Source: an uncultured Kiloniellales bacterium (lineage in GTDB: Bacteria; Actinomycetota; Acidimicrobiia; Spongiisociales; UBA5794). Taken from it: 64,000 nucleotides of DNA. A program made the position numbers and the translations under genes. Below are positions 4,371 to 60,091 of the stretch, one piece after another (the first letter of the stretch is position 1; the number at the start of each line of letters is the position of its first letter). The stretch lies in the NCBI GenBank assembly GCA_964195155.1, contig CAXMOP010000021.1, positions 7,007 through 71,006 on the forward strand. Reading direction: 5' to 3'. The notes under the pieces are model-generated. The model saw nothing but the letters and a program-made list of their open reading frames with translations, searched no databases and was not told the DNA's origin.

Positions 4371-4402
4371 CAGGAGCCCCCGTAAGGGGGCTCCTGCTTT
4401 TG
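4371..4402 (+). terminator. rho-independent terminator (CAGGAGCCCCC-GTAA-GGGGGCTCCTG + CTTTTG)
   Basis: Perfect 11-bp GC stem, 4-nt loop, followed by T-run. Confidence 0.6.
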
Positions 4403-4476
4403 AGTCGCGAGTCGCGAGTCGCGAGGCCCGATCCGACCTTTTTTGCTCGTGTCTCGCGTCTCGCGACTCGCGACTC
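4402..4476. repeat. heptad-repeat hairpin element: (GAGTCGC)x3 ... loop with TTTTTT ... (GCGACTC)x3
   Basis: Inverted arms of tandem 7-mers between convergent genes; right arm ends at permease stop. Confidence 0.8.
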
Positions 4477-13369: not shown

Positions 13370-13594
13370 TTGGCCAGAGGTGACGACACTTTCCGTACCC
13401 AGGGGACCATCGTTGAGACCCTGAGGAACGCGGAATTCCGTGTCGAGCTCGATTCCGGCCTGGAGGTCATCGCCAGAGCATCTGGGAAGATGCGGCGTGG
13501 CCGAGGGATCCGGATCATTGCCGGCGACAAGGTCGAGGTCGAGGTGTCAGCCTACGACCCGACCAAGGGCCGGATTGTCTGGCGGCATCGGTAG
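13370..13594 (+). CDS. infA: translation initiation factor IF-1
   Basis: S1-like fold sequence GTIVE...FRVELDSG.EVIARASGKMRR..IRIIAGDKVEVEVSAYDPTKGRIVWR; TTG start 6 nt after RRM stop. Confidence 0.85.
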   Translation: MARGDDTFRTQGTIVETLRNAEFRVELDSGLEVIARASGKMRRGRGIRIIAGDKVEVEVSAYDPTKGRIVWRHR

Positions 13595-13639
13595 ACAACA
13601 GTCGCGAGTCGCCAGTCGCGAGCCACGAGTCATAAGGAA

Positions 13640-13681: not shown

Positions 13682-14242
13682 ATGAAGCGGTTCCTCGCAT
13701 TGGTCGCAGTCGTCGTCGTGATCAGCACCGCGGTTGGTGTGGCGTTGGTCGTACGGCAGCGTCGGCGGCTGGGGAGGATGTCCGACGACGAGCTGCGCGC
13801 CGTACTCGAGGACAAGATCGGAGAGCGGGTGTCGCCCGAGCAGCTTGCACTGATCCAGGATGCAGTCGTCGCCAAGGTGCGCGGAAGCCGCTGGTCATCG
13901 TCGGGTGCGGTCACCGGCTCGGTGACGTATTCCGAACAGATCTCAATGCCACCCGACGCGGTCGTGATCGTCGAACTGCTCGATACGTCGCGGCTGGACG
14001 CCCCCTCCCAGCAGATTGGTGCACACGTGATCGATGACCCGCGATCCGTCCCCCTCTCTTACTCGATCGGGTTCGACCCTGCTGAGATCGTCGAGAGCCA
14101 CGGGTACTCGATCAGGGCCACGATCAGCGCCGACGACCGGCTGCTGTGGACTACCGACACCAACTACCCGGTGATCACCCGTGACAACCCGACGACCGTC
14201 GATCTGCTGTTGGTTGCGGTGACTGAGCCGGTATCGGAATAG
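13682..14242 (+). CDS. YbaY-family lipoprotein-like protein
   Basis: N-terminal TM/signal, motif VTGSVTYSEQISMPPDAVVIVELLDTSRLDAP...RATISADDRLLWTTD. Confidence 0.7.
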   Translation: MKRFLALVAVVVVISTAVGVALVVRQRRRLGRMSDDELRAVLEDKIGERVSPEQLALIQDAVVAKVRGSRWSSSGAVTGSVTYSEQISMPPDAVVIVELLDTSRLDAPSQQIGAHVIDDPRSVPLSYSIGFDPAEIVESHGYSIRATISADDRLLWTTDTNYPVITRDNPTTVDLLLVAVTEPVSE

Positions 14243-14352
14243 GAGGGTGTTGAACAATGACGAGTGCGCTGAGCCGCCGCTCGCTTGATTGTTGCGGTGA
14301 CTCGGTTTCTCCAGTCAGCGCCGGCACGCTGGAGGATTGCTCAACACCCTCC
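14241..14352. repeat. ~110-nt TIR element, family A copy 1 (TAGGAGGGTGTTGAACAATGACGAGTG...GGATTGCTCAACACCCTCCTA)
   Basis: Terminal inverted repeats; first 3 nt are the ybaY TAG stop. Confidence 0.85.
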
Positions 14353-14431
14353 TAGCCGCCCCAAATACACGCCACCCCCGACAAAGCCGGGGGCAGCGCG
14401 CCCCGAGTGGGGCCTGAGAGCGTCTTAGTGG

Positions 14432-24816: not shown

Positions 24817-25182
24817 GTGGACAACATCGATTGGAATAGTCTTTTGTTTCAGTTCGACGGCAGGATCAACCGGGGCAAGTTCTGGCTCGGCACGGTGATC
24901 ATCTGGGTGGCTTATATCGTGATCGTGGGCATCGCAGCGGCGGCCGAAGCGGTCCTGGTCTACGTGCTGGCTCTCCTGTTGATATGGCCCGGGCTTGCGG
25001 TGTCGATCAAGCGCTGGCACGACCGCGACAAGTCGGGCTGGTGGGTTTTGATCGGTCTGATCCCACTGATTGGCCCAATCTGGGCGTTCATCGAGACCGG
25101 TTTCCTCGAGGGGACCAGCGGTCCCAACGAGTACGGGCCCGACCCGCTTGGTGGTGGCGTCGCCGACGACATGGCGATGTAG
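24817..25182 (+). CDS. DUF805 inner-membrane protein (paralog 1)
   Basis: RINRGKFWLG ... KRWHDRDKSGWW motif; GTG start after GAAGGGA. Confidence 0.75.
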   Translation: MDNIDWNSLLFQFDGRINRGKFWLGTVIIWVAYIVIVGIAAAAEAVLVYVLALLLIWPGLAVSIKRWHDRDKSGWWVLIGLIPLIGPIWAFIETGFLEGTSGPNEYGPDPLGGGVADDMAM

Positions 25183-25243: not shown

Positions 25244-25609
25244 GTGGCTGATATTGACTGGATGGACCTGCTCTTTCAATTTGACGGAAGGATCAACCGC
25301 GCCAAGTTCTGGTTGGGGATCGTGGTCGTGGCAGTGATCAATGTCATTGCGTCGGCACTCTTTCGCGGAAACTCGGTCTTCATCGCGTTTCTGATCACCC
25401 TGGCGTTGCTGTGGCCGAGCCTGGCCGTCGCGATCAAACGCTGGCACGACCGCGACAAATCCGGCTGGTGGGTGTTGATCGTGCTGATTCCCCTGATCGG
25501 CTGGATCTGGGCGCTGATCGAAACCGGCTTCCTCGAGGGGACCAAGGGTCCCAACCAGTACGGGCCGGACCCGCTCGGAGGCGGTATCGCCGACGACATG
25601 GCGATGTAG
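25244..25609 (+). CDS. DUF805 inner-membrane protein (paralog 2, tandem duplicate)
   Basis: ~65% identical to previous gene incl. identical C-terminus. Confidence 0.8.
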   Translation: MADIDWMDLLFQFDGRINRAKFWLGIVVVAVINVIASALFRGNSVFIAFLITLALLWPSLAVAIKRWHDRDKSGWWVLIVLIPLIGWIWALIETGFLEGTKGPNQYGPDPLGGGIADDMAM

Positions 25610-26127: not shown

Positions 26128-26559
26128 ATGAGAACTCGTCCACCCCTCGACGAGCTTCGCCGAATCTACGCGGACAGCAAGACGATCGCGGTGGTGGGCG
26201 CCTCTCCCGATCCCGAAAAGCGCGCCCATGTCGTTCCCGCCTACCTCCAGGAACAGGGGTACCGGATCATCCCGGTGAATCCCAGGCACGAGGAAGTGCT
26301 TGGCGAGAAGGCCTATCCAACCCTGCTCGACATCCCCGAGCCCGTCGATGTCGTCGACGTGTTCCGCCCAGCAGACGAGGCGCCCGGCATCGCAGAAAAC
26401 GCCGCCGCCATCGGTGCCGGCGTACTGTGGCTCCAGGTCGGCATCGTCTCGGAGGAAGCAGGCGAGATTGCCGCTGCGTCCAACATGAGCTTCGTCATGG
26501 ACCACTGCATGGGCATGATGCACGCCAAGCTCGGCCTCGGCCCGGGACCGGACCACTGA
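26128..26559 (+). CDS. CoA-binding domain protein (YccU-like)
   Basis: KTIAVVGASPDPEKRAH...YRIIPVNP. Confidence 0.8.
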   Translation: MRTRPPLDELRRIYADSKTIAVVGASPDPEKRAHVVPAYLQEQGYRIIPVNPRHEEVLGEKAYPTLLDIPEPVDVVDVFRPADEAPGIAENAAAIGAGVLWLQVGIVSEEAGEIAAASNMSFVMDHCMGMMHAKLGLGPGPDH

Positions 26560-26562
26560 GTC

Positions 26563-26640
26563 AAGAGTCGCGAGTCGCGAGCCTGACTTCCGGCTCTGGA
26601 CTCTCGACTCCGGACTCAGGACTTTTCCAGCGCCAGCTCC
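26563..26640. repeat. heptad/hairpin repeat element (GAGTCGC x2; CCTGACTTCCGG...CCGGACTCAGG)
   Basis: Between convergent CoA-binding and lon genes. Confidence 0.6.
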
Positions 26641-28928: not shown

Positions 28929-28945
28929 GTGGCGTGTCCTTTCTT

Positions 28946-29019
28946 GAGTCACGAGTCACGAGTCGCGAGTCGCGAGCCAATCCCGCAATTCTCGCGACTC
29001 GCGACTGGCGACTCGCGTC
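28946..29019. repeat. heptad-repeat hairpin (GAGTCAC/GAGTCGC x4 ... CTCGCGACTCGCGACTGGCGACTCGCG)
   Basis: Inverted arms upstream of lon. Confidence 0.8.
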
Positions 29020-29177
29020 TTCTCTTTGGGTTGACTTGAACCGTAGGGCGAAATTCGGTATTCCCTGACGGTCCTGGGGCGTCGTCGGGATCGGTCCGAA
29101 ACTCTTGCGGAGCAACGGTTCTGGAATTCTGTCACACCCGGCCGGCACGATGTACCCATGAGGAAAGGAGAGCAGCG

Positions 29178-30152: not shown

Positions 30153-30295
30153 CCGAATCTCTGCGGTTACATGTCATGTCTTTGCGACGGTGCGACACCG
30201 CGTCTCGTCGAGGGTGGGGTATTCGTTTTTCCCCCCTGTTTCCCCCCTGAGGTGAACGGTCGCGCTGGGGTGCGACACTTGCCTCGGCGGCGCGG

Positions 30296-30548
30296 TTTCT
30301 TTGCCTCCCCCTCAGGGGGAGGTGCCGAGCGCCAGCGAGGCTGAGGGGGTCAAGGCGTTGTCGCGACCACGGTTTGACCCCCCTCCCCGCCTGCGGCGGG
30401 ACTCCCCCCTGGGGGGGAGCAACGAGAACGCCGCGGCGGTGAGCCCAACGATCGTCGTACTGTCGCGAAACACGACACCCTTAGGGGAGGCAAAGAAGTC
30501 GCCTCACAAGCGACGGGAGGAAACGGGCGGGGAGGGGGCTTAGCGCTG
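30296..30548. repeat. GC-rich multi-hairpin repeat, family C locus 1 (CCTCCCCCTCAGGGGGAGG...GGGGGTCAAGGCG...TTTGACCCCCC...GGGACTCCCCCCTGGGGGGGAG...)
   Basis: Shared with 39285-39605 and 59040-59400. Confidence 0.85.
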
Positions 30549-30599
30549 TCACCACAAGGCGTGGTAGCGCCCTACGGCTGCGTGATCGTTGGGCCGGAT

Positions 30600-31841: not shown

Positions 31842-31954
31842 TAGGACGGTGATGAACAATGACGAGTGCTAGGGGCCGCCGCTTGCTCGGATGATCCGGT
31901 GACTTGGTTTCTCCCGACAGCAGCGGCCCGCTGGTGGATTGCTCACCACCCTCC
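31842..31954. repeat. family A TIR element copy 2
   Basis: TAGGACGGTGATGAACAATGACGAGTGC...GGATTGCTCACCACCCTCCTA. Confidence 0.8.
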
Positions 31955-32014
31955 TACGCGATTCTCATCGGCGTCGCAGCCGTTTCCGCTGCCGCCGCCA
32001 TATGCTCGGCCGCC

Positions 32015-32941: not shown

Positions 32942-33032
32942 CGAGTGCCACGTCCGCCGCTTGCTCGGATGATCCGGTGCCTCGGTTTCTCCCGACCGCA
33001 GCCCCCGCTGCAGGATTGCTCACCCACCCTCC
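32927..33032. repeat. family A TIR element copy 3 (5' arm partly coding)
   Basis: GAGGACGAACAGTGACGAGTGCC...GGATTGCTCACCCACCCTCC. Confidence 0.75.
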
Positions 33033-35352: not shown

Positions 35353-36210
35353 TCAGTCGTTGAGGGCGGCGGCAATGGCTGCGTATTTGTCGAGCTTGTC
35401 GATCACGACCTCGCGATCGACCGATGGCAATCCGAACACCACCCTGGTCACACCAAGGTCTCGCATCATCTCGAGTTGCTCGAGATCGCGCGGCGCCTGC
35501 CAGGCCGTCAGCTCCAACGAATTGGGATCGCGGCCGGCGGTTTCCATGGCGGCCCGAACTTCCCCGATCTTGCCGGCCATCTCGTGTCTGACGACGATCG
35601 GCATCCACCCGTCACAGAACTCGGCGATGTCGCGCATCGTCCTCGGGCCGGCGCCACCGCCGAGGATGATCGGCGGGTGCGGCTTCTGCGTTGGCTTCGG
35701 CCATTGCCAGGATGGCGTGATATCGACGTGGTCGCCGTGGTACTCGGCCTCGTCCTTCGTCCACAGCTCGATCATGGCCAGCACCTTCTCGCGCAGGATC
35801 GCCCGCCGGTCGGTGTAGGCGACGTGGTGATTGGCCAGCTCTTCTTTGTTCCACCCATATCCGATCCCGAACAGCACCCGCCCATTCGAGATCACGTCGA
35901 GTGAGGCCACCTGTTTGGCCAGCCACAACGGGTCGTGTTGGGCCACCAGGGTGATGCCCGTGCCCAGTTTGACCGTGTCGGTGACCGCGGCGCAGGCCGC
36001 CAGGGCGATGAGCTGGTCGTGCGTTCTCCAGTACATCTCGGGTAGCTCGGCGGCACCGTCGATGCCTCCCCATGGGGTCTTCCGTGAGATCGGGATGTGG
36101 CTGTGCTCGGGAAACCACAGAGACTCGAAACGGCGCGCCTCGACCTCCCTGGCCAGATCCACCGGCTGGATGGTCTTGTCGGTGGGAAAGATCGAGACGC
36201 CGATGTGCAT
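35353..36210 (-). CDS. LLM-class F420-dependent oxidoreductase
   Basis: MHIGVSIFPTDK...FESLWFPEH; ATG 36210 preferred (TTG 36246 lies in repeat). Confidence 0.8.
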   Translation of the reverse strand: MHIGVSIFPTDKTIQPVDLAREVEARRFESLWFPEHSHIPISRKTPWGGIDGAAELPEMYWRTHDQLIALAACAAVTDTVKLGTGITLVAQHDPLWLAKQVASLDVISNGRVLFGIGYGWNKEELANHHVAYTDRRAILREKVLAMIELWTKDEAEYHGDHVDITPSWQWPKPTQKPHPPIILGGGAGPRTMRDIAEFCDGWMPIVVRHEMAGKIGEVRAAMETAGRDPNSLELTAWQAPRDLEQLEMMRDLGVTRVVFGLPSVDREVVIDKLDKYAAIAAALND

Positions 36211-36300
36211 GCCAGTAGCTAAGTAGCTGAGTAGCCAAGTAGCCAAGTCCTGGTCAACGGCTTTCCTCTTTTCTTCGCTACTTCGCTACTTGGCTACTGC
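36211..36300. repeat. heptad-repeat hairpin (AGTAGCY x5 ... CTACTTSG x4)
   Basis: Inverted arms in divergent promoter region. Confidence 0.75.
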
Positions 36301-39232: not shown

Positions 39233-39284
39233 CTTCAGATGCTAGAAGGGCGATGTTGTTGTCTCTTCGGACCGCCGCCGGCCG

Positions 39285-39605
39285 GGCATCAGGGGGAGGT
39301 GCCGAGCGCCAGCGAGGCGGAGGGGGTCAAGGCGTGGTCGCGGCCACGCCTTGCGGCGGGACTCCCCCCTGAGGGGGGAGCAAAGAAAGGGCCGCGGCGC
39401 CACGGCTTTACCCCCCTCCCTTCTCGGGAAGGTGGCGACAACAGCGAGGTGGCTTCTTTGCCTCCCCCTCAGCTCAGGGGGAGGTGCCGAGCGCCAGCGA
39501 GGCGGAGGGGGTCAAGGCGTGGTCGCGGCAACGGTTTGACCCCCCTCCCCGCCTTGCGGCGGGACTCCCCCCTTGAGTTGAGGGGGGATCAAAGAAAGGG
39601 CCGCG
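39285..39605. repeat. family C GC-rich multi-hairpin repeat, two tandem units
   Basis: CATCAGGGGGAGGTGCCGAGCGCCAGCGAGGCGGAGGGGGTCAAGGCGTGGTCGCGG... x2. Confidence 0.85.
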
Positions 39606-39608
39606 GCG

Positions 39609-40781
39609 CTAGTCCGGCAGCGAAAACGCCACCAGCCCGCCGGGGCCTGGCTCTGCCCAGATGTGTCCGCCAAGCTCCTCGACCAGTTCCCTGGCGACTG
39701 CCAGCCCGAGGCCCGCACCTCCGGTCGATCGGGAGCGAGCCGGATCGGCTCTGGCGAACTCGTCGAAGGCCGCCTCGGTAAAGGAGGGCGGAAAGCCCGG
39801 CCCCTCGTCGGCGACCGTGACGGTTGCCGGCATCTCGACGGTGACCGTGATCTCCGAGCCGGACGGGGCGTGCCTGATCGCGTTGTCCAACAGATTCCGG
39901 ATCACCCGACCGATCGGCGCTGGTCCGGTATTGATCACAGAGGTTCCGTCAGTGTCGAGGCGGACGTTGACACCGGCTTGCCGCGACACCGGCGCCAGCA
40001 CCTCGATCGCCTCGTCGACGATCTCGGCGAGATCCACCGGCATCCGCTCGTACTCGAACCCTCCTGACTCGATGCGAGCGAGCAGAAACAGGTCGTCCAC
40101 GAGCTGGTTCAGCACCCGGGTGTCGCCCTCAATCGAAGCCAGGTATCGATCCGGGTCGGATGCCACACCGTCCCGCAACGCCTCAGCAGCGGCCTGGAGT
40201 GCGGCGAGCGGGGAGCGGAGGTCGTGGCTTACCGATGCGAAGAATCGCCGGCGAGCCTCATCGTCACGAGCTCGCTCGATGTCGAGGGCGGCAAGCTCCC
40301 GTGCCATTTCATCGACCGCATGCGCAGTGGACCCGACCTCGTCGGCGCGGTCGACCCCGGTTCTTGCGGTGAGGTCCCCGCCGGCAATTCGGGATGCTGT
40401 TTCCGCAACGCTGCGGAGATCCTCGGTCCAAGGTTTGGCGACCGATACAGCAAAGCTCAGGCCGGCGACCAGGCCGAGTCCGAGAACGACGATGAGCAGC
40501 TGGGCGTCGTGCGTCGACAGGAACATCCGCTGCGCAGAGACCACCGCGCCGACGATGACGATCAGCAGAGCGGTGGCGATGAGCGCGATCAGCGTTCCAC
40601 GCAGCGAGGTCGCCCGGCGTGCCCACCGGGGCAATGCCCAGGCGGCGACGGCTGCGGCGACGACCATGCCGAGAAGGATGGCGAGCAGCTCGACCCGTTC
40701 AGCCCCCGACGGCTGCATGCCGATCTCGAAAAGGGCGACGCCCACGAGGACAGCAGCGACGGCGAGTCCCAGGATCCTCAT
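39609..40781 (-). CDS. sensor histidine kinase
   Basis: 2 TM, HAMP, H-box SVSHDLRSPLAAL, HATPase_c; ATG 40781 overlaps RR stop (ATGA). Confidence 0.85.
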   Translation of the reverse strand: MRILGLAVAAVLVGVALFEIGMQPSGAERVELLAILLGMVVAAAVAAWALPRWARRATSLRGTLIALIATALLIVIVGAVVSAQRMFLSTHDAQLLIVVLGLGLVAGLSFAVSVAKPWTEDLRSVAETASRIAGGDLTARTGVDRADEVGSTAHAVDEMARELAALDIERARDDEARRRFFASVSHDLRSPLAALQAAAEALRDGVASDPDRYLASIEGDTRVLNQLVDDLFLLARIESGGFEYERMPVDLAEIVDEAIEVLAPVSRQAGVNVRLDTDGTSVINTGPAPIGRVIRNLLDNAIRHAPSGSEITVTVEMPATVTVADEGPGFPPSFTEAAFDEFARADPARSRSTGGAGLGLAVARELVEELGGHIWAEPGPGGLVAFSLPD

Positions 40782-41527
40782 GGCTCGAAGCGGTATCCCA
40801 TGCCGCGCACGGTCGTGATCCACTTTGGCCGTTCGGGGTCGGCCTCGATCTTCTGGCGCAGGCGGGCGACGTGCACGGTGACGGTGGACGGGTCCTGGTA
40901 ATCGGGAGACGAGTCCCACACCTGTTCGAGAAGCTCGGATCGAGACATCGCGGTGCGTGGCGCCGATGCGAGGTGTGCGAGGAGATCGAACTCCATCGGC
41001 GTCAGCTTGACCAGCGCGCCGTGGAGCTCGACCTCCCTGCTCGAGCCGTCGATGACGAGACCGTCGAACTCCAACCGCTCGGCCAGCCTCGGCGCCTGGG
41101 TCCTGCGGAGCACCGAACGGACCCTGGCAACGACTTCTCGCGGAGAGAACGGCTTGACGACGTAGTCGTCTGCGCCAAGCTCGAGGCCAACGATGCGGTC
41201 GGGCTCTTCCGCACGGGCCGTGAGCAGGATCACCGGCACCGAGCTGTTCTTGCGAAGGCTGGTCAGTACGGCAAACCCATCCAGCTCGGGCAGCATGACG
41301 TCGAGCACGATCAGATCGGGCTTGGTCGAGGCGGCCAGATCGAGGGCGTCCTGTCCGTTCGCTGCCTCGTCGACGGCGTACCCGTCTCGTTTGAGGTAGC
41401 CAACGAGTACCTCGCGCACCATCGGCTCGTCGTCGACGACGAGGATCCGCCTAACCGCGCCGTTTCCCTGCGAGGACACGCCCATATCGTAAGGGCGCGT
41501 CCTCGCAAGGTTGGTGGTCGATGTCAA
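40778..41527 (-). CDS. OmpR-family response regulator
   Basis: REC VVDDEP...D, winged-helix C-term TVRGMGYRF. Confidence 0.88.
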   Translation of the reverse strand: MTSTTNLARTRPYDMGVSSQGNGAVRRILVVDDEPMVREVLVGYLKRDGYAVDEAANGQDALDLAASTKPDLIVLDVMLPELDGFAVLTSLRKNSSVPVILLTARAEEPDRIVGLELGADDYVVKPFSPREVVARVRSVLRRTQAPRLAERLEFDGLVIDGSSREVELHGALVKLTPMEFDLLAHLASAPRTAMSRSELLEQVWDSSPDYQDPSTVTVHVARLRQKIEADPERPKWITTVRGMGYRFEP

Positions 41528-42495: not shown

Positions 42496-42658
42496 GGGTT
42501 GCTTTCTCTGATCTGTGGGCGCGATTCGACGCCCGGTCGAGGTGGGCAACGGGCCGGATGATGGTCTCGTTCCGGATCCCAGTGGTGTTCACACGAGGTT
42601 CCTCGTTTGTTGACGGAGCTGTAAGAAACCCAGTCTCCCCCCGAAGGCGACGAGAGAC

Positions 42659-42773
42659 TAGGAGGGTGTTGAGCAATCCTCTAGCGTGCGGGGGCTGACT
42701 GGAGAAACCGAGTCACCGCAACACTCAAGCGAGCGGCGGCTCAGGGCACTCGTCATCGTTCAATACCGTCCTA
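42659..42773. repeat. family A TIR element copy 4 (reverse orientation); terminal CTA is methyltransferase stop on minus strand
   Basis: TAGGAGGGTGTTGAGCAATCC...CGTTCAATACCGTCCTAG. Confidence 0.85.
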
Positions 42774-44407: not shown

Positions 44408-44449
44408 GAGCTCCACCCTACAAAGCGTCGTAGTCATATCTCCCGGGGG

Positions 44450-44632
44450 GAGTCGCGAGTCGCGAGTCGCGAGCTATGACCGAATCGCTTCTCGATACAG
44501 AACTCGCGATCAGGCAGTCGGGCGGCGAGCCCCTGCGAGCCGCCCAACAAACATGACCGAATCGCTTCTCGATACAGAACCCGCGATCAGGCAGTCGGGC
44601 GGCGAGCCCCTGCGAGTCGCCCATGGGAATGG
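44450..44632. repeat. (GAGTCGC)x3 heptads followed by two tandem copies of ~72-nt family D unit (ATGACCGAATCGCTTCTCGATACAGAACYCGCGATCAGGCAGTCGGGCGGCGAGCCCCTGCGAGYCGCCCA)
   Basis: Direct comparison 44474-44552 vs 44553-44632. Confidence 0.85.
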
Positions 44633-44670: not shown

Positions 44671-45654
44671 ATGCGCTATGGAGCTTTCATCCCGCAGGGC
44701 TGGCGTCTCGACCTCATGGGCATCGACCGCCACGAGCAATGGCCGACAATGCTTGCCGTCGCAAGAGACATCGAGGCCGCCGGTTACGAATCGCTGTGGG
44801 TGTTCGATCACTTCCACACGGTCCCGATCGGCACACAGGAGTCCAGCTACGAAGCATGGACGCTGATGGCGGCCCTTGCCGCCACCACCGACACGGTGAG
44901 AATCGGTCAGATGTGCACATCGATCGCGTACCGCAACCCGGCCTACCTGGCGAAGATCGCGGCGGACATCGACGTGATCTCCAACGGCCGTCTCGAGATG
45001 GGAATCGGCGCCGGCTGGTACCAGGAGGAGTACGACGGCTACGGCTACGACTTCCCCAAGCCATCGGTACGCATCGGGGAGCTCCAGGAGGGCGTCGAGA
45101 TCATGCGCCGGATGTGGACCGAGGACGAGGTCGAGTACGACGGGAAGTACTTCACGCTCCACGGTGCGATCGCGAATCCGAAACCGATCCAGGGATTGCT
45201 GCCGATGTGGATTGCCGGCGGCGGCGAGCAACTCACCCTCCGTGTCGCTGCCAGATACGCCGACTACACAAACTTCGGGCTCGAGCTCGACGCCTTCGCG
45301 CATAAGAGCGAAGTGCTTGCAGATCACTGTCGGGCGGTCGGACGAGATTTCGACGAGATCGTGCGTTCGGTGAACTTCACCGTGCTCATCGACGAGGATC
45401 AGCAGGTCGTCACCGACAAGCTCGACGAGATCGAGACACGGATGACGAAGCTGGTCGGCGCCGAAAAAGCGGAGCGAACGCGAGCCACGTACGAGAAGCA
45501 CGGGCTCATTGGCACACCGGACCAGATCATCGAGCAGCTCGGCCCCTGGCAAGACGCCGGGATGCGCTACATCATCGGTTACTTCCCCGACGCCGCCTAC
45601 GACCGCACCAGCCTCGATCTGTTCGCGAAGATCAGTAGATCAGTAGCTGAGTAG
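44671..45654 (+). CDS. LLM-class F420-dependent oxidoreductase
   Basis: MRYGAFIPQGWR...ESLWVFDHF. Confidence 0.85.
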   Translation: MRYGAFIPQGWRLDLMGIDRHEQWPTMLAVARDIEAAGYESLWVFDHFHTVPIGTQESSYEAWTLMAALAATTDTVRIGQMCTSIAYRNPAYLAKIAADIDVISNGRLEMGIGAGWYQEEYDGYGYDFPKPSVRIGELQEGVEIMRRMWTEDEVEYDGKYFTLHGAIANPKPIQGLLPMWIAGGGEQLTLRVAARYADYTNFGLELDAFAHKSEVLADHCRAVGRDFDEIVRSVNFTVLIDEDQQVVTDKLDEIETRMTKLVGAEKAERTRATYEKHGLIGTPDQIIEQLGPWQDAGMRYIIGYFPDAAYDRTSLDLFAKISRSVAE

Positions 45655-45750
45655 ATCAGTAGCTGGGTAGATCAGTGTCTGCCTTAGCTACTTGGTCTGC
45701 CTTAGCTACTTGGCTACTTCGCTACTTCGCTACTGCTTCGCTACTTCGGT
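45630..45750. repeat. heptad/octad-repeat hairpin (GATCAGTAGM x5 ... CTACTTSGC x6)
   Basis: Inverted arms of tandem units; left arm encodes last codons of LLM. Confidence 0.75.
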
Positions 45751-45800
45751 AGGTCGCTCGGCCTCTTCTCGCTAGCTCGAGTTGTCGGTACGCTGACCCC

Positions 45801-53241: not shown

Positions 53242-53702
53242 TGGCCAGCGCCATCGACGAGCTGCTCGCTGCGGTCGTCGACCCGGAGATCCCGGTGCTC
53301 ACGATTGCCGACCTCGGCGTCCTGCGAGGGGCTTCGGTCGACGAACACGGCGTGGTCACGGTGACGATCACCCCCACCTATTCGGGGTGCCCGGCAATGG
53401 GCGTCATCGAGGAGGACATCGTGTCGACCCTCGAAGCCGGCGGATACGACCAGATCGTGGTGCGCACGACCTTCAGCCCGGCCTGGACCTCGGACTGGAT
53501 GAGCGAAGAAGCCAAGCGGCGACTGAACGAATACGGCATCGCCCCGCCACAGCAAGTCGGGAGCACACCCGAGCCCGTGTTGTGTCCGCAGTGCGCAGCG
53601 CCGGAAACCAGGCTCGTTGCCGAGTTCGGCTCCACGGCCTGCAAGGCGCTGATGGTGTGCAGCTCGTGCGCCGAGCCCTTCGACCACTTCAAAGCAATAT
53701 GA
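53241..53702 (+). CDS. paaD: phenylacetate-CoA oxygenase subunit PaaD (Fe-S assembly SufT-like)
   Basis: DUF59 N-term + CxxC...CxxC C-term. Confidence 0.8.
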   Translation: MASAIDELLAAVVDPEIPVLTIADLGVLRGASVDEHGVVTVTITPTYSGCPAMGVIEEDIVSTLEAGGYDQIVVRTTFSPAWTSDWMSEEAKRRLNEYGIAPPQQVGSTPEPVLCPQCAAPETRLVAEFGSTACKALMVCSSCAEPFDHFKAI

Positions 53703-53798
53703 GTCGCGAGTCGCGAGTCGCGAGTCGCGAGTTACGAGTCGCGAACGACTCGTCGCTTGTCATGCTCGCGTCTCGCGTCTCGCGACTCGCGACTTCTC
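53703..53798. repeat. heptad-repeat hairpin (GAGTCGC x5 ... GCGACTC-type x4) inserted between paaD and paaE
   Basis: Direct reading; both arms intragenic-operonic. Confidence 0.85.
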
Positions 53799-55610: not shown

Positions 55611-56363
55611 ATGGCCGAGACGCGAGGCAGGGTCAGGGTCGAAGACGGCCACAAACGAGTACGGGTCTACCTCGGTGGCGAGGTCGTCGCAGACTCGGTG
55701 AGCCCGAAATACGTGTGGGAACGGCCGTACTACCCGACCTACTACTTCCCGGCGGCAGACGTTCGCACGGATCTGTTGGTCGACACCGGCGACACCTACC
55801 GATCGCCGAGCCGGGGCACCGCATCCGTGCACACCGTCAAGGCGGGTGGTCGGGAGGCATCGGCTGCGGTACGGGTTTGGGACCAGGCCGAGATCGATGA
55901 GATCAAGGGCTACGTCTCGTTCAACTGGAACGCCATGTCGCGTTGGTTCGAGGAGGAAGAAGAGGTGTACGTCCATGCCCGCGACCCGTACAAGCGCGTC
56001 GATATTCTCCAGTCGTCCCGTCACATCGAGGTGGTGATCGACGGCGCGACCGTCGCCGACTCGCACCAGCCGAAGCTCCTCTTCGAAACTGGTCTGCCGG
56101 TGCGCTACTACTTGCCGAAGACCGACGTTCGCCTGGATCTGCTCGTTTCCTCCGACACCGCGACCAGCTGTCCCTACAAGGGAGATGCGGAGTACTGGCA
56201 TGTGCGTACCGCCGACGGACTGGTCGAGGACATCGTCTGGTCGTATCCGACTCCGGTCGCTGAGTCGGCGCCGATAGCCGGCTATGTCTCGTTCTACAAC
56301 GAGAAAGTCGACATCATCGTCGACGGCGAGCTCGAGGCCCGGCCGGAAACGGTATTCAGCTAG
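55611..56363 (+). CDS. DUF427 domain protein (two tandem DUF427 domains)
   Basis: Repeated blocks ...VRVYLGGEVVADS / IEVVIDGATVADS and GYVSFxxxxxD. Confidence 0.7.
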   Translation: MAETRGRVRVEDGHKRVRVYLGGEVVADSVSPKYVWERPYYPTYYFPAADVRTDLLVDTGDTYRSPSRGTASVHTVKAGGREASAAVRVWDQAEIDEIKGYVSFNWNAMSRWFEEEEEVYVHARDPYKRVDILQSSRHIEVVIDGATVADSHQPKLLFETGLPVRYYLPKTDVRLDLLVSSDTATSCPYKGDAEYWHVRTADGLVEDIVWSYPTPVAESAPIAGYVSFYNEKVDIIVDGELEARPETVFS

Positions 56364-56475
56364 GAGGGTGTTGAGCAATCCTCCAGCGTGCCGACGCTGA
56401 CTGGAGAAACCGAGTCACCGCAACACGCAAGCGAGCGGCGGCTCAGGGCATTCGTCATTGTTCAACACCGTCCTA
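56361..56475. repeat. family A TIR element copy 6 (reverse orientation, ~93% identical to copy 1); supplies TAG stop
   Basis: TAGGAGGGTGTTGAGCAATCC...CATTGTTCAACACCGTCCTA. Confidence 0.85.
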
Positions 56476-58245: not shown

Positions 58246-58932
58246 CTATTGCCTGCTCAGTGTCACTAGGCCGTTCGAATCATTGACGCGTAAGGCAAAA
58301 TCGAACGCATCGACCATCAGGCATAGCTCGATGTCGCCGTCATCGATCCATGAGGCCGCTCGCAGCCGCTTCGTGCCGGCACCGGCGAGTACTGAAGCGA
58401 TGACGGCTTCGGCCTCGAGTTCGCGTTCCAACAGCGTTCCCGCAATCACATTTCCGGTCAGTTCGTCTTCGTCGTGCGGAACTGAGGGCGACCCGCCCGA
58501 CGACACGAGGGCGACGGTCCGCTCTTTTCCGAGTGATTCGGCGGTGGCGCGTGCGACGAGCAGGCTCGCCGCGTAGATCGGGCCAGCACCCGCTTCAACC
58601 GCCGCCACGACGCAGCGGGTCCCTGCGGTGGTGCGCATCACAACCGTTGCCCCGGCCAGGCCGCCATGGGCGATCACTTCCGTCGGGGAATTCCCGAGAT
58701 CGAAGTCATCCGGGCGCCGGCCTTGATCCTCACCGCACAGCAGGGCGCGATCATGATGTGCGGCGATGCGCCGGGCTTCATCGACACCGTCGGTGAGGAT
58801 GAGCCGGCTCACCCCGGCGTCGAGGAGATAGGCGGCGGTCGAGAAGGCGCGGTAGGTGTCGATCACAACAGTCGGCCCCGATGCTGTTGCGGCTCCGTCG
58901 AGGCCGACAGTGCGGGTGATGGTCGGCGGCAC
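58246..58932 (-). CDS. 2-phosphosulfolactate phosphatase (ComB)-family protein
   Basis: TVVIDTYRAFSTAAY... family blocks; GTG 58932 start assumed, upstream ORF extension runs into repeats. Confidence 0.6.
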   Translation of the reverse strand: MPPTITRTVGLDGAATASGPTVVIDTYRAFSTAAYLLDAGVSRLILTDGVDEARRIAAHHDRALLCGEDQGRRPDDFDLGNSPTEVIAHGGLAGATVVMRTTAGTRCVVAAVEAGAGPIYAASLLVARATAESLGKERTVALVSSGGSPSVPHDEDELTGNVIAGTLLERELEAEAVIASVLAGAGTKRLRAASWIDDGDIELCLMVDAFDFALRVNDSNGLVTLSRQ

Positions 58933-58960
58933 GCGGGGAGGGTAACCATCCTTGCTGGGC

Positions 58961-59480
58961 GGCTCGCGGGGGCTCGCCGCCTGACTGCCTGATCTTGCGT
59001 TCTCTGCTGCGAAGCAATTCGGTGTGCGTACACCGAGGCCGTCGCCCTCTCCTTTTGCTCCCCACTCAGGGGGGAGTCCCGCCGCCAGGCGGGGAGGGGG
59101 GTCAAACCGTGGTCGCGAGAAGCGCTTTGACCCCCCTTCGCCTCGCTGCGCTCGGCACCTCCCCCTGAGGGGGAGGCAAAGAAGCCGCCTCGACGGGGGG
59201 AATACCGCCGGAGAGTGGAGGGGGGTCGAGGCGTGGCGCCAGGGGCCCCTCTCCTTTTGCTCCCCCCTCAGGGGGGAGTCCCGCCGCCAGGCGGGGAGGG
59301 GGGTCAAGGCGTGGTCGCGAACAACGCCTTGACCCCCTCCGCCTCGCTGCGCTCGGCACCTCCCCCTGAGGGGGAGGCAAAGGAGTCGCCTGGCGTCCTC
59401 GGTATCGCCGCCACTGAATTGCTTCTCGCTCGAGAGCTCGCGATCAGGCAGTCGCCGCCGAGCGGACTGCGAGGCGGCCA
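58961..59480. repeat. composite repeat island: inverted family D copies (58961-59028 and 59412-59480) flanking two family C units in reverse orientation (59040-59400)
   Basis: Direct sequence comparison. Confidence 0.8.
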
Positions 59481-59509
59481 ACAAGCATGGCGCGCGGTTC
59501 AGCTTTATC

Positions 59510-60091
59510 GTGACCGGACTCATGCTCCAAAACATGATCCGCGCCGGCGCGCTCGATTCCGACTTCTACAACCTCGTCGAACGCGACCCGTCTTTGAACG
59601 GGCAGGCGTTCTTCGTCGTCGTGATCGCCAATGGGCTTGCCGGTGTTGGAGCATGGATCGGCCTGGGTGAGGTGGTTGGATCGGAGATCTGGGAGGGTGT
59701 CCGCGCCTGGTTTGCTTTCGGCACATGGATCGGTCTAGACGACGGAGGCCTGCCTTTCGCTGTGGTGGCCAACATCGCATTGGCGCTGACCGGGTGGGTC
59801 GTATGGGCATGGACGACGGGCTTCATCGGCGCACGTGTTTTCGGCGGCACGACCGACTTCGCCGAGATGGCCCGCGTTCTCGGGTTTGCCCAGGCGCCCC
59901 GCGTGATCGCAGTGATTCCACTGCTCGGACCCGTCGCCGCCGTCTGGACGCTGGTCGCTTCCGTGATTGCGATCCGGCAAGGACTCGACTTGGACACCCC
60001 GCGCGCCATCGGGACTGCGATTGGAGGATGGCTTGTGTGGGTCGTCCTGCAGCTCGGAGCGCTGCTGATCGCGGGGACGCTCTTCGGTTAG
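59510..60091 (+). CDS. Yip1-domain membrane protein
   Basis: 5 TM; start GTG 59510 or ATG 59522. Confidence 0.65.
   Translation: MTGLMLQNMIRAGALDSDFYNLVERDPSLNGQAFFVVVIANGLAGVGAWIGLGEVVGSEIWEGVRAWFAFGTWIGLDDGGLPFAVVANIALALTGWVVWAWTTGFIGARVFGGTTDFAEMARVLGFAQAPRVIAVIPLLGPVAAVWTLVASVIAIRQGLDLDTPRAIGTAIGGWLVWVVLQLGALLIAGTLFG

Follow-up and report, generated by a model that had tools for sequence, protein, structure and literature searches.

Palindromic intergenic repeats of bacteria have been described in several forms. The repetitive extragenic palindromes (REPs) of Enterobacteria, Pseudomonas and Stenotrophomonas are GC-rich imperfect palindromes of 20-40 nt that carry a GTAG/CGTC tag, occur as inverted doublets folding into one hairpin (bacterial interspersed mosaic elements, BIMEs, and REPINs), and have a cognate enzyme, the HUH-Y1 transposase RAYT. 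[quoted passage not shown] The CIR/Bru-RS repeats of Alphaproteobacteria (Chen and Shapiro 2003, summarized in PMC2229807) are ~110-nt intergenic sequences with two hairpin arms, conserved between species, devoid of terminal inverted repeats and target-site duplications, and spreading by an obscure mechanism. On a smaller scale, the motif GCGNAGC or GCGNNAGC was named 'mini-hairpin DNA' in a 2026 review (PMC13037366); it melts at ~80 C as DNA versus 39 C for its RNA version, and its known natural examples are the priming sites for single-stranded DNA (ssDNA) of phage G4, ssiA, and the phage N4 promoters. The subject of this study is a very GC-rich multi-hairpin repeat in a 64,000-nt stretch of contig CAXMOP010000021.1 (assembly GCA_964195155.1, positions 7,007 to 71,006; hereafter the window), for which a preliminary description had offered three options: a structured non-coding RNA, a REP/BIME-like element or a MITE. 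Our analysis indicates that the repeat units are probably members of an extensive family of intergenic repeats in marine Acidimicrobiia that are non-coding, modular and palindromic and of the REP/BIME/MITE kind, with the DUF559 endonuclease as a candidate partner. The second and third options were right in kind, whereas a structured RNA gene found no support.

Reading of the sequence, alignment of the copies and an nhmmer profile built from them placed five units (U1 to U5) of one sequence family at three intergenic loci of the window (Table 1). The units are 107-148 nt long, 90-96% identical in pairwise comparisons and 69-74% in GC content, compared with 64% for the window. Five occurrences of the 19-mer CAGGGGGAGGTGCCGAGCG were counted in the window, versus 0.06 expected from shuffled sequences. 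The three loci reported previously were therefore real, as were the two tandem units near 39285-39605 (U2, which is truncated, and U3) and the two reverse-oriented units within 59040-59400 (U4 and U5, both on the minus strand). The stretch 30296-30548 does contain the repeat, but only one full unit (30295-30428), the remainder being an accessory module and fragments.

Each unit consists of two inverted modules, A and B, around a variable spacer. Module A reads TTGC, hairpin H1 (CCTCCCCC-TCA-GGGGGAGG), T, the core GCCGAGC-G(N)NA-GCGAGGC, and GGA-GGGGGTCA (the G-run), and module B reads TGACCCCCC-TCC (the C-run), a variable hairpin H3, GA, hairpin H4 (CTCCCCCC-TGA-GGGGGGAG), and CAA. Hairpin H2 is formed by the G-run of A paired with the C-run of B, and over ~24 nt the unit ends, CTTTGCCTCCCCCTCAGGGGGAGG and CTCCCCCCTGAGGGGGGAGCAAAG, repeat each other in inverted form. 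The hairpins quoted in the preliminary description are present: CCTCCCCCTCAGGGGGAGG is found at 30304, 59158 and 59359 and GGGACTCCCCCCTGAGGGGGGAG at 39358 and 59260, but the inner palindrome GTGGTCGCGACCAC, said to be perfect, has no occurrence in the window, and its actual copies carry 1-3 mismatches. A fifth small hairpin, the invariant core GCCGAGC-GNA-GCGAGGC, had been overlooked. The peptide PPPQGEVPSASEAEGVKA is indeed read at 30313, and the open reading frames (ORFs) over the repeat are spurious, as had been proposed. They contain no Pfam domain, their codon-position GC content is atypical, and their frames differ between copies because of 1-nt insertions and deletions, so a protein-coding function was rejected.

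The whole unit is an imperfect palindrome, and its minimum-energy fold is a single long hairpin of ~60 bp, with energies of -89 to -103 kcal/mol for RNA (z = -5.8 to -8.4) and of -45 to -55 kcal/mol for a single strand of DNA; for RNA or DNA alike, z was -5 to -8. A competing fold has four to five local hairpins, and RNAalifold favors this kind of fold, with four of them, closed by TTG/CAA. In 42 diverse copies, the share of cells able to pair was 86.7% for the long form and 91.5% for the local form, compared with 51-64% in slid controls. Compensatory changes affect the closing stem, a single position of H2 (CG 10, GC 9) and H3, where CCCGCC/GGCGGG alternates with CCGGCC/GGCCGG and others. Enrichment of UNCG tetraloops in H3 was considered and rejected, as the loops are mostly TGGC or TGC.

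The core was characterized from 177 distinct copies, in which the loops were GCA (82), GCCA (25), GAA (19), GTCA (6), GGA (4) and GTA (4), while the surroundings of the loop were fixed and variation was confined to the N positions; therefore, the center of the core is GCGNAGC or GCGNNAGC, which corresponds to the published definition of the mini-hairpin (PMC13037366) and is present in all five window units. In the window, the stem of the core consists of GC/GC, flanked by tandem G.A/A.G and then by GCC/GGC. In a distant copy (L193; the loci collected in this study are designated by L and a number), the core reads CCATCGC-GCA-GCGATGG, which has the same shape and a fully Watson-Crick stem; judged from the sequences, this is the best single covariation evidence for the core hairpin. 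Directly upstream of the core, a hairpin of at least 7 bp was found in 84% of 134 distinct cores versus 3.6% in shuffled sequences, and it was built from 33 different stems. The core resembles the D-arm of a class II tRNA, and some B-A composites could make a four-way junction; a tRNA-like element was nevertheless rejected, since ARAGORN detected no tRNA and the Rfam tRNA model did not match the units. Rfam gave no match in the window, and the units produced only sub-threshold matches resembling miRNA hairpins.

The distribution of the family was examined in loci collected by 19-mer scans (52 genome loci and at least 117 metagenome loci). Among the matches listed by nhmmer there were at least 226 non-overlapping ones in 176 public loci (72 full length, 123 with module A only, and 19 with module B only), which correspond to at least 143 distinct sites, mainly in metagenome contigs of Acidimicrobiia. 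The existence of copies beyond the window, for which a profile search had been proposed, was thus established. Among these matches, the carriers were mainly metagenome-assembled genomes (MAGs) of Acidimicrobiia/Actinomycetota and JGI contigs of the Ga025505x series. By exact protein matches, the window itself was also located on contig CAXMNS010000015.1 of MAG GCA_964194755.1 and in JGI samples 3300024521 and 3300027872, and the named relatives nearest to its UvrD-like helicase are Acidimicrobiia/Actinomycetota MAGs. Contigs ending within a unit were encountered in many cases, and the units often break metagenome assemblies. Matches of the 19-mer to unrelated sequences were left out. In Alphaproteobacteria (L002, L012, L042 and L052) these lie in the LQGEVPSA motif encoded by ATPase genes of oligopeptide ABC transporters, and in a Streptomyces contig (L030) they lie in a tandem repeat of 56 nt.

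Full units were also present in contigs binned as Acidobacteria, Kiloniellales and Saprospiraceae. These contigs have the same GC content as the window (64%) and the same heptamer arrays, so mis-binning is likely and they were not used as evidence; the evidence for occurrence across phyla was limited to plasmids of cultured Alphaproteobacteria and to long contigs. Plasmid pSM30-1 of Pleomorphomonas sp. SM30 carries a complete A+B unit whose arms co-vary (CCTTCCCC/GGGGAAGG throughout), plasmid pMDW1 of Aminobacter sp. MDW-2 carries a B-A arrangement, and copies were also found in Litorimonas and Novosphingobium contigs. Furthermore, 23 IMG/VR contigs carry GGTGCCGAGCG-N(1-2)-AGCGAGGCGG, in which the upstream hairpin and the downstream G-run sequences are quite different and yet match each other. 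A search of phage genomes for the element gave no match.

The core of 22 nt is invariant across phyla. Its match to the mini-hairpin of ssDNA priming and promoter sites suggests that it is recognized when DNA is single-stranded or forms a cruciform. The invariance could also be expected if a host protein, for instance gyrase, a methyltransferase or a nucleoid-associated protein, bound the units as double-stranded DNA. Such a role has been proposed for BIMEs and for the CcrM-associated CIRs (PMC2229807), and in the Acidimicrobiia copies, module B has a single GANTC site (GACTC) with almost no variation. This explanation appears quite improbable, because the core varies at loop positions only, as would suit a hairpin rule more than a duplex site, GANTC is absent from the alphaproteobacterial copy and not enriched overall, and no candidate binding protein was found. 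A link to GANTC and CcrM was not supported by these two GANTC findings.

Orthologous sites in related genomes, retrieved as syntenic loci via homologues of a helicase, differed in their content of units. In L179, whose helicase is 78% identical, the spacer between the histidine kinase and hydrolase genes is 73 nt long and holds no element, compared with 376 nt and two units in the window, and in L176, with an 86% identical helicase, other module types were found at both window sites. L088 has a 'D-type' module downstream of the methyltransferase gene, that is, at the site orthologous to that in the window. Since the orthologous loci are empty or hold other modules, the units constitute a turnover-prone repeat and not a conserved RNA gene. 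Of the orthologous loci L128 and L011, whose flanks are 89-94% identical, one has a full unit and the other an A-only copy, and the two copies differ by a 72-nt deletion between two G-runs; therefore, singlets are decay products of doublets. Mosaics with tandem sub-repeats of a 47-52 nt period and extra modules were also observed. Units are gained, lost, replaced, truncated and duplicated, and they are concentrated at the 3' ends of genes; their behavior is that of selfish elements of the REP/MITE type.

The D-type sister module consists of a hairpin CCCCCCGGCC-GGA-GGCCGGGGGG followed by ACGCGAGGAGCGCCAGCGACGATGCAGGGGGG, also holds GCGNNAGC, and pairs with A modules. It was found at L176 5215-5425 and 13030-13260, at L088 3560-3640, and in L021, L049, L029, L004, L024, L025 and L018, and in related genomes such modules take up the sites orthologous to those of the window.

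A family of genes for a trans-acting structured small RNA would account for the high degree of structure, for core loops of the GNA/GNRA type, and for the strand on which A precedes B folding better than its complement by 2-13 kcal/mol. It is highly improbable as the origin of the units, given their absence from orthologous sites, their occurrence in both orientations relative to neighboring genes, their truncations, internal deletions and tandem sub-repeats, and the lack of both an Rfam family match and an associated promoter-like site.

With respect to gene context, 31 sites were located between convergent genes, 20 between co-directional genes and 9 between divergent genes, compared with a baseline of 19%, 62% and 18.5%, respectively, in the same loci (chi-square p = 1e-9; p = 1e-5 after weighting by spacer length). 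The gene calls behind these counts were made by a crude caller based on GC content at third codon positions, with at least one error (locus 3 of the window). The orientation of the units relative to flanking genes showed no preference. The association with gene ends that was to be checked according to the preliminary description was thus found, in the form of an enrichment between convergent genes, but no insertion sequence (IS) with matching ends was. Units accumulate where they are least harmful, mainly between convergent gene ends.

The same enrichment between convergent genes and near stop codons is what would be seen if the units were cis-acting RNA structures at transcript ends, acting as bidirectional terminators or 3'-end stabilizers and spreading through their usefulness. 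U3 ends ~10 nt from the stop codon of the histidine kinase gene (39609-40919, minus strand; Pfam), the stability of the hairpins is very high, the terminal hairpins have stop codons on both strands in their TGA/TCA loops, and REP elements stabilize upstream mRNA (Delihas review, PMC3184786). On the other hand, no U-tract is present on either strand; the hairpins are flanked as TTCTTTG-hairpin-CAAAGAA, with CAAAGAA following them on both strands, which is the reverse of a canonical terminator, and a terminator scan made no call, so a canonical intrinsic terminator was rejected. Moreover, one of the three window loci lies between divergent 5' ends, orthologous sites are empty or hold other modules, and the mini-hairpin melts at a far lower temperature as RNA than as DNA (PMC13037366). 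A function at transcript ends is therefore unlikely to explain the family, and a secondary role of the units at transcript ends is possible.

The lead to a partner came from flanking genes, among which DUF559 (PF04480, with PF18741) appeared twice, the first sign of a link. To our knowledge, no activity is known for DUF559 proteins. A tblastn search identified five DUF559 genes in the collected loci, each of them bracketed by modules of the class that makes up the units. In L102, from a 173-kb contig of the sample series of the window, an A module is followed after ~70 nt by a DUF559 ORF of 124 codons and then by a B module; the end of the ORF (...AGTPP) is encoded by GGGACTCCCCCC, and its stop codon is the TGA of the H4 loop. 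L268, which comes from a different study and encodes a protein 72% identical to that of L102, has the same A-ORF-B layout and the same TGA stop, and a gene-less A-B unit adjoins this arrangement. The distance from the A module to the ORF is 55-70 nt in these two loci. In L267, from an Acidimicrobiia MAG, an A-like module lies upstream and the ORF enters the H4 sequence at the contig end. Modules bracket a DUF559 gene also in L170, L183, L017 and L193, and in the last of these the gene lies 3 kb from the core by which the locus was found and has its own variant modules.

A module of this class was located directly upstream of all 13 DUF559 genes inspected, eight of which had been picked by homology to the L102 protein and contig size alone in order to lessen ascertainment bias. 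In the proteobacterial homologues and in one contig of 48% GC, the sequence directly upstream is a C-run/G-run hairpin with a G-rich mirror tail; modules of this proteobacterial type were also found downstream in three cases, and the mini-hairpin was found in none. In Acidovorax, Stutzerimonas and others (L269, L270, L271, L273/L274 and L276), the DUF559 gene is located between acnD and prpF in the methylcitrate operon. In viral contigs, module density was 0.22 per kb near the DUF559 gene versus 0.07 per kb farther off. No paper mentioning DUF559 in the literature searched ties it to repeats. As read from these sequences, the partnership of DUF559 with the units is a lead, and DUF559 is a candidate only.

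A mechanism consistent with these observations would be spread as DNA, in which a trans-acting nuclease would recognize the hairpins in single-stranded or cruciform-extruded DNA; the far higher stability of the core as DNA and the known use of such hairpins in ssDNA recognition fit this mechanism. The nuclease could be the small, Vsr-like PD-(D/E)xK protein of the DUF559 family. In one version, A-DUF559-B would be the autonomous element and A-B its deletion derivative, as in the relationships of MITE to IS or of REPIN to RAYT. In another, the DUF559 gene would be a homing-type invader of the H2 spacer in pre-existing units. Tentatively, the module (a C-run/G-run hairpin, an optional mini-hairpin GCGNAGC, and a G-rich mirror tail) might be the cis end of a selfish DUF559 cassette that has so far gone unrecognized, and the gene-less A-B units, those of the window and, in a wider sense, the GC-rich 'PLSP...GEG...' repeats of many GC-rich bacteria, might be its non-autonomous derivatives or homing targets.

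Several observations weigh against a mobile repeat family partnered by DUF559. The window contains no DUF559 gene, and the fixed position of that gene between acnD and prpF in several Proteobacteria looks non-mobile. In viral contigs, a strict detector found a module within 300 nt of only 4 of 21 DUF559 genes (0.65 in shuffled sequences), a count that is too low because the detector requires the mini-hairpin. The layouts around DUF559 vary (A-gene-B, direct-orientation composites and inverted A modules), so the repeats might just have gathered around a small stand-alone gene, or that gene might target them. Regarding the units themselves, no direct or extended inverted repeat indicative of a target-site duplication was seen at 38 unit boundaries, no transposase was present between inverted copies, no parent IS with the same ends was found, and a tblastn search with E. 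coli RayT over 1.29 Mb of loci, which is a weak test, detected no RAYT-like ORF. Several of the cross-phylum MAG assignments are doubtful. Finally, covariation among Acidimicrobiia copies is weak. The covariation check suggested in the preliminary description therefore gave pairing above the slid controls but few compensatory changes among these copies, because they are so alike.

Table 1. Coordinates of the repeat units and associated features in the window
Feature	Position	Strand	Evidence or remarks
Accessory left module of U1 (...CCCCCCTGAGGTGAACGGTCGCGCTGGGGTGCGACACTTGCCTCGGCGGCGCGG)	30225-30294	+	Same sequence before units in L124, L081, L131 and L053
U1, full length (A + B)	30295-30428	+	nhmmer 133 bits; folds
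U1 H1	30304-30322	+	Sub-feature coordinates
U1 core mini-hairpin (GCCGAGC-GCCA-GCGAGGC)	30324-30341	+	Sub-feature coordinates
U1 H2	30345-30382	+	
U1 H3	30386-30400	+	
U1 H4	30402-30419	+	
Right accessory sequence and reverse-oriented degenerate module-end remnants	30429-30560	.	Reading; flanks of other copies
Example of a remnant, GGGGAGGCAAAGAAGTCGCCTC	~30484-30505		Within the right accessory stretch of locus 1
U2, truncated; core 39301-39318	39283-39389	+	nhmmer 94 bits, model positions 13-137; alignment
U2/U3 linker, degenerate extra module: C-run, hairpin CCTTCTCGGGAAGG, degenerate core TGGCGACAACAGCGAGGTGG	39390-39451	+	Sequence
U3, full length; core 39486-39503	39452-39599	+	nhmmer 134 bits; fold -101.6 kcal/mol, z -8.0
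U4, full length; core 59140-59156	59048-59185	-	nhmmer 135 bits; fold
U5/U4 linker, degenerate B-like module GGCGCCACGCCTCGACCCCCCTCC...	59186-59249	-	Sequence; comparison with U2/U3 linker
U5, full length; core 59341-59357	59250-59386	-	nhmmer 135 bits; fold -103.3 kcal/mol, z -8.4
Arm of another repeat (77 nt)	58947-59023	.	Inverted partner at 59410-59480, beyond U4/U5

At locus 1, rmuC (plus strand) and a methyltransferase gene (minus strand), as identified by Pfam, face the repeat with their 3' ends. Locus 2 fills the 376-nt spacer from the histidine kinase stop codon to the start of an alpha/beta-hydrolase gene, both genes being on the minus strand, and locus 3 is bounded by the 5' ends of two divergent genes, one comB-like and the other Yip1. 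The comB-like ORF (58246-59535, minus strand, 429 codons) is a 2-phosphosulpholactate phosphatase gene (PF04029, residues 221-386), and its upstream extension through the repeat is an artifact, the real start being near 58949. In U2, the 5' arm of H1 is missing and an internal deletion of 18 nt takes out the 3' arm of H2. U3 has duplications of 5-6 nt in the loops of both terminal hairpins, and H2 of U5 is perfectly paired. Linkers like that between U2 and U3 are also found between U5 and U4 and in L124. The inverted partners of the 77-nt repeat lie on both sides of U4 and U5, so these two units are nested in another palindrome. A further array is located 1.1 kb past the end of the window (L123, its continuation).

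Other repeats were also observed in the window. The heptamer GAGTCGC and its complement form inverted tandem arrays, that is, repeat-built hairpins with GANTC in each heptamer, at 4395-4476, 13591-13636, 26550-26623, 28945-29020, 44442-44486 and 53700-53794, and such arrays flank units in other contigs as well (L001, L006 and L108). Octamer tandem arrays (CAGTAGCT)n, with complementary arrays nearby, are located at 36205-36300 and 45625-45763, and similar (CAGCTACC)n arrays adjoin A modules in L004, L047 and L121. A different repeat of ~120 nt was found at 14240-14356 (+), 31842-31956 (+), 42658-42773 (-) and 56359-56475 (-), with a partial copy at 32954-33002; its copies are 83-95% identical, share a long closing stem (TAGGAGGGTGTTGAGCAAT ... 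ATTGCTCAACACCCTCCTA) and have no Rfam match, and they may represent another structured repeat or RNA family. The 77-nt repeat is tandemly duplicated at 44476/44553 (44476-44623), where L054 has a single copy at the same locus, and a 205-nt direct repeat (24978-25182 and 25405-25609) is 83% identical between copies 427 nt apart.

The family is of practical relevance to genome annotation, where units yield spurious ORFs and, in the window, at least one over-extended gene call (the comB-like gene), and to assembly, where they fragment the metagenome assemblies of a widespread, uncultured, marine actinobacterial lineage. If the link to DUF559 is true, a large family of 'endonuclease domain-containing' proteins would gain a function, and a cognate enzyme would be assigned to a very common class of GC-rich repeats in bacteria, as happened for REPs with RAYT; the link could be tested directly in vitro, using a single small protein along with synthetic oligonucleotides. 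A DUF559 cassette, if true, would account for a repeat class that ranges from Acidimicrobiia to Proteobacteria and includes copies carried by plasmids and viral contigs.

Searches of the literature with the core sequence returned nothing relevant. Neither Rfam nor the searchable literature describes the family, which is new within a known kind of element. A CRISPR array or integron attC sites were rejected, as there are no fixed-length unique spacers and no GTTRRRY ends, and the neighbors are housekeeping genes. The units share with CIR/Bru-RS, which were compared by description, an intergenic location, two hairpin arms, interspecies conservation, an obscure mechanism of spread and, through related modules, an occurrence on Rhizobiales plasmids. 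The GANTC that defines CIR is exposed in a loop (PMC2229807), whereas that of the units, a single GACTC, is in the stem region before H4 and is lost in the alphaproteobacterial (Pleomorphomonas) copy, and membership in CIR was therefore rejected. Mini-hairpin DNA is matched exactly within the invariant core, and its known natural cases are single phage or plasmid priming or promoter sites, not dispersed repeats (PMC13037366).

The element resembles REP/BIME and MITEs in kind, yet it is not a REP in the strict sense and does not appear to be a MITE in the strict sense. Like REPs, the units are high-copy, extragenic, GC-rich imperfect palindromes in inverted doublets and clusters (at least 143 sites, with tandem mosaics), with decay to singlets, a bias to gene 3' ends, and a small nuclease gene bracketed by repeats. 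They differ in that their modules are ~50-55 nt long with two or three hairpins instead of one 20-40 nt palindrome, that the GTAG/CGTC tag is conserved at neither end in the 42-sequence alignment, and that no Y1 (RAYT) gene was found in the loci searched, the only match (L167, E = 0.018) being spurious and inside an OsmC-like ORF; the candidate partner here is Vsr-like with a PD-(D/E)xK fold, whereas RAYT is an HUH-Y1 transposase.

With MITEs the units have in common their small size (134-148 nt), terminal inverted repeats, a long stem-loop, the lack of coding capacity, presence or absence among related genomes, and a longer gene-bearing form with the same ends (L102 and L268). In contrast to MITEs, their copies form pronounced mosaics containing tandem sub-repeats, and no target-site duplication was seen; a single empty site was available (L179), and it is too diverged for mapping the junction. 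Neither a DDE transposase nor an IS with matching ends turned up; no transposase family recurred among 150 flanking genes, and a gene between inverted modules in L048 proved to be GlcG-like. Between A and B modules, the DUF559 endonuclease gene was the only one detected.

Vsr-like PD-(D/E)xK homing endonucleases, such as I-Bth0305I, are known from introns and inteins of protein-coding genes. The arrangement described here resembles theirs in that a small nuclease gene is located inside a sequence that is also present in many copies lacking the gene, as expected for homing, and it differs in that the gene occupies the spacer of a palindromic intergenic repeat.

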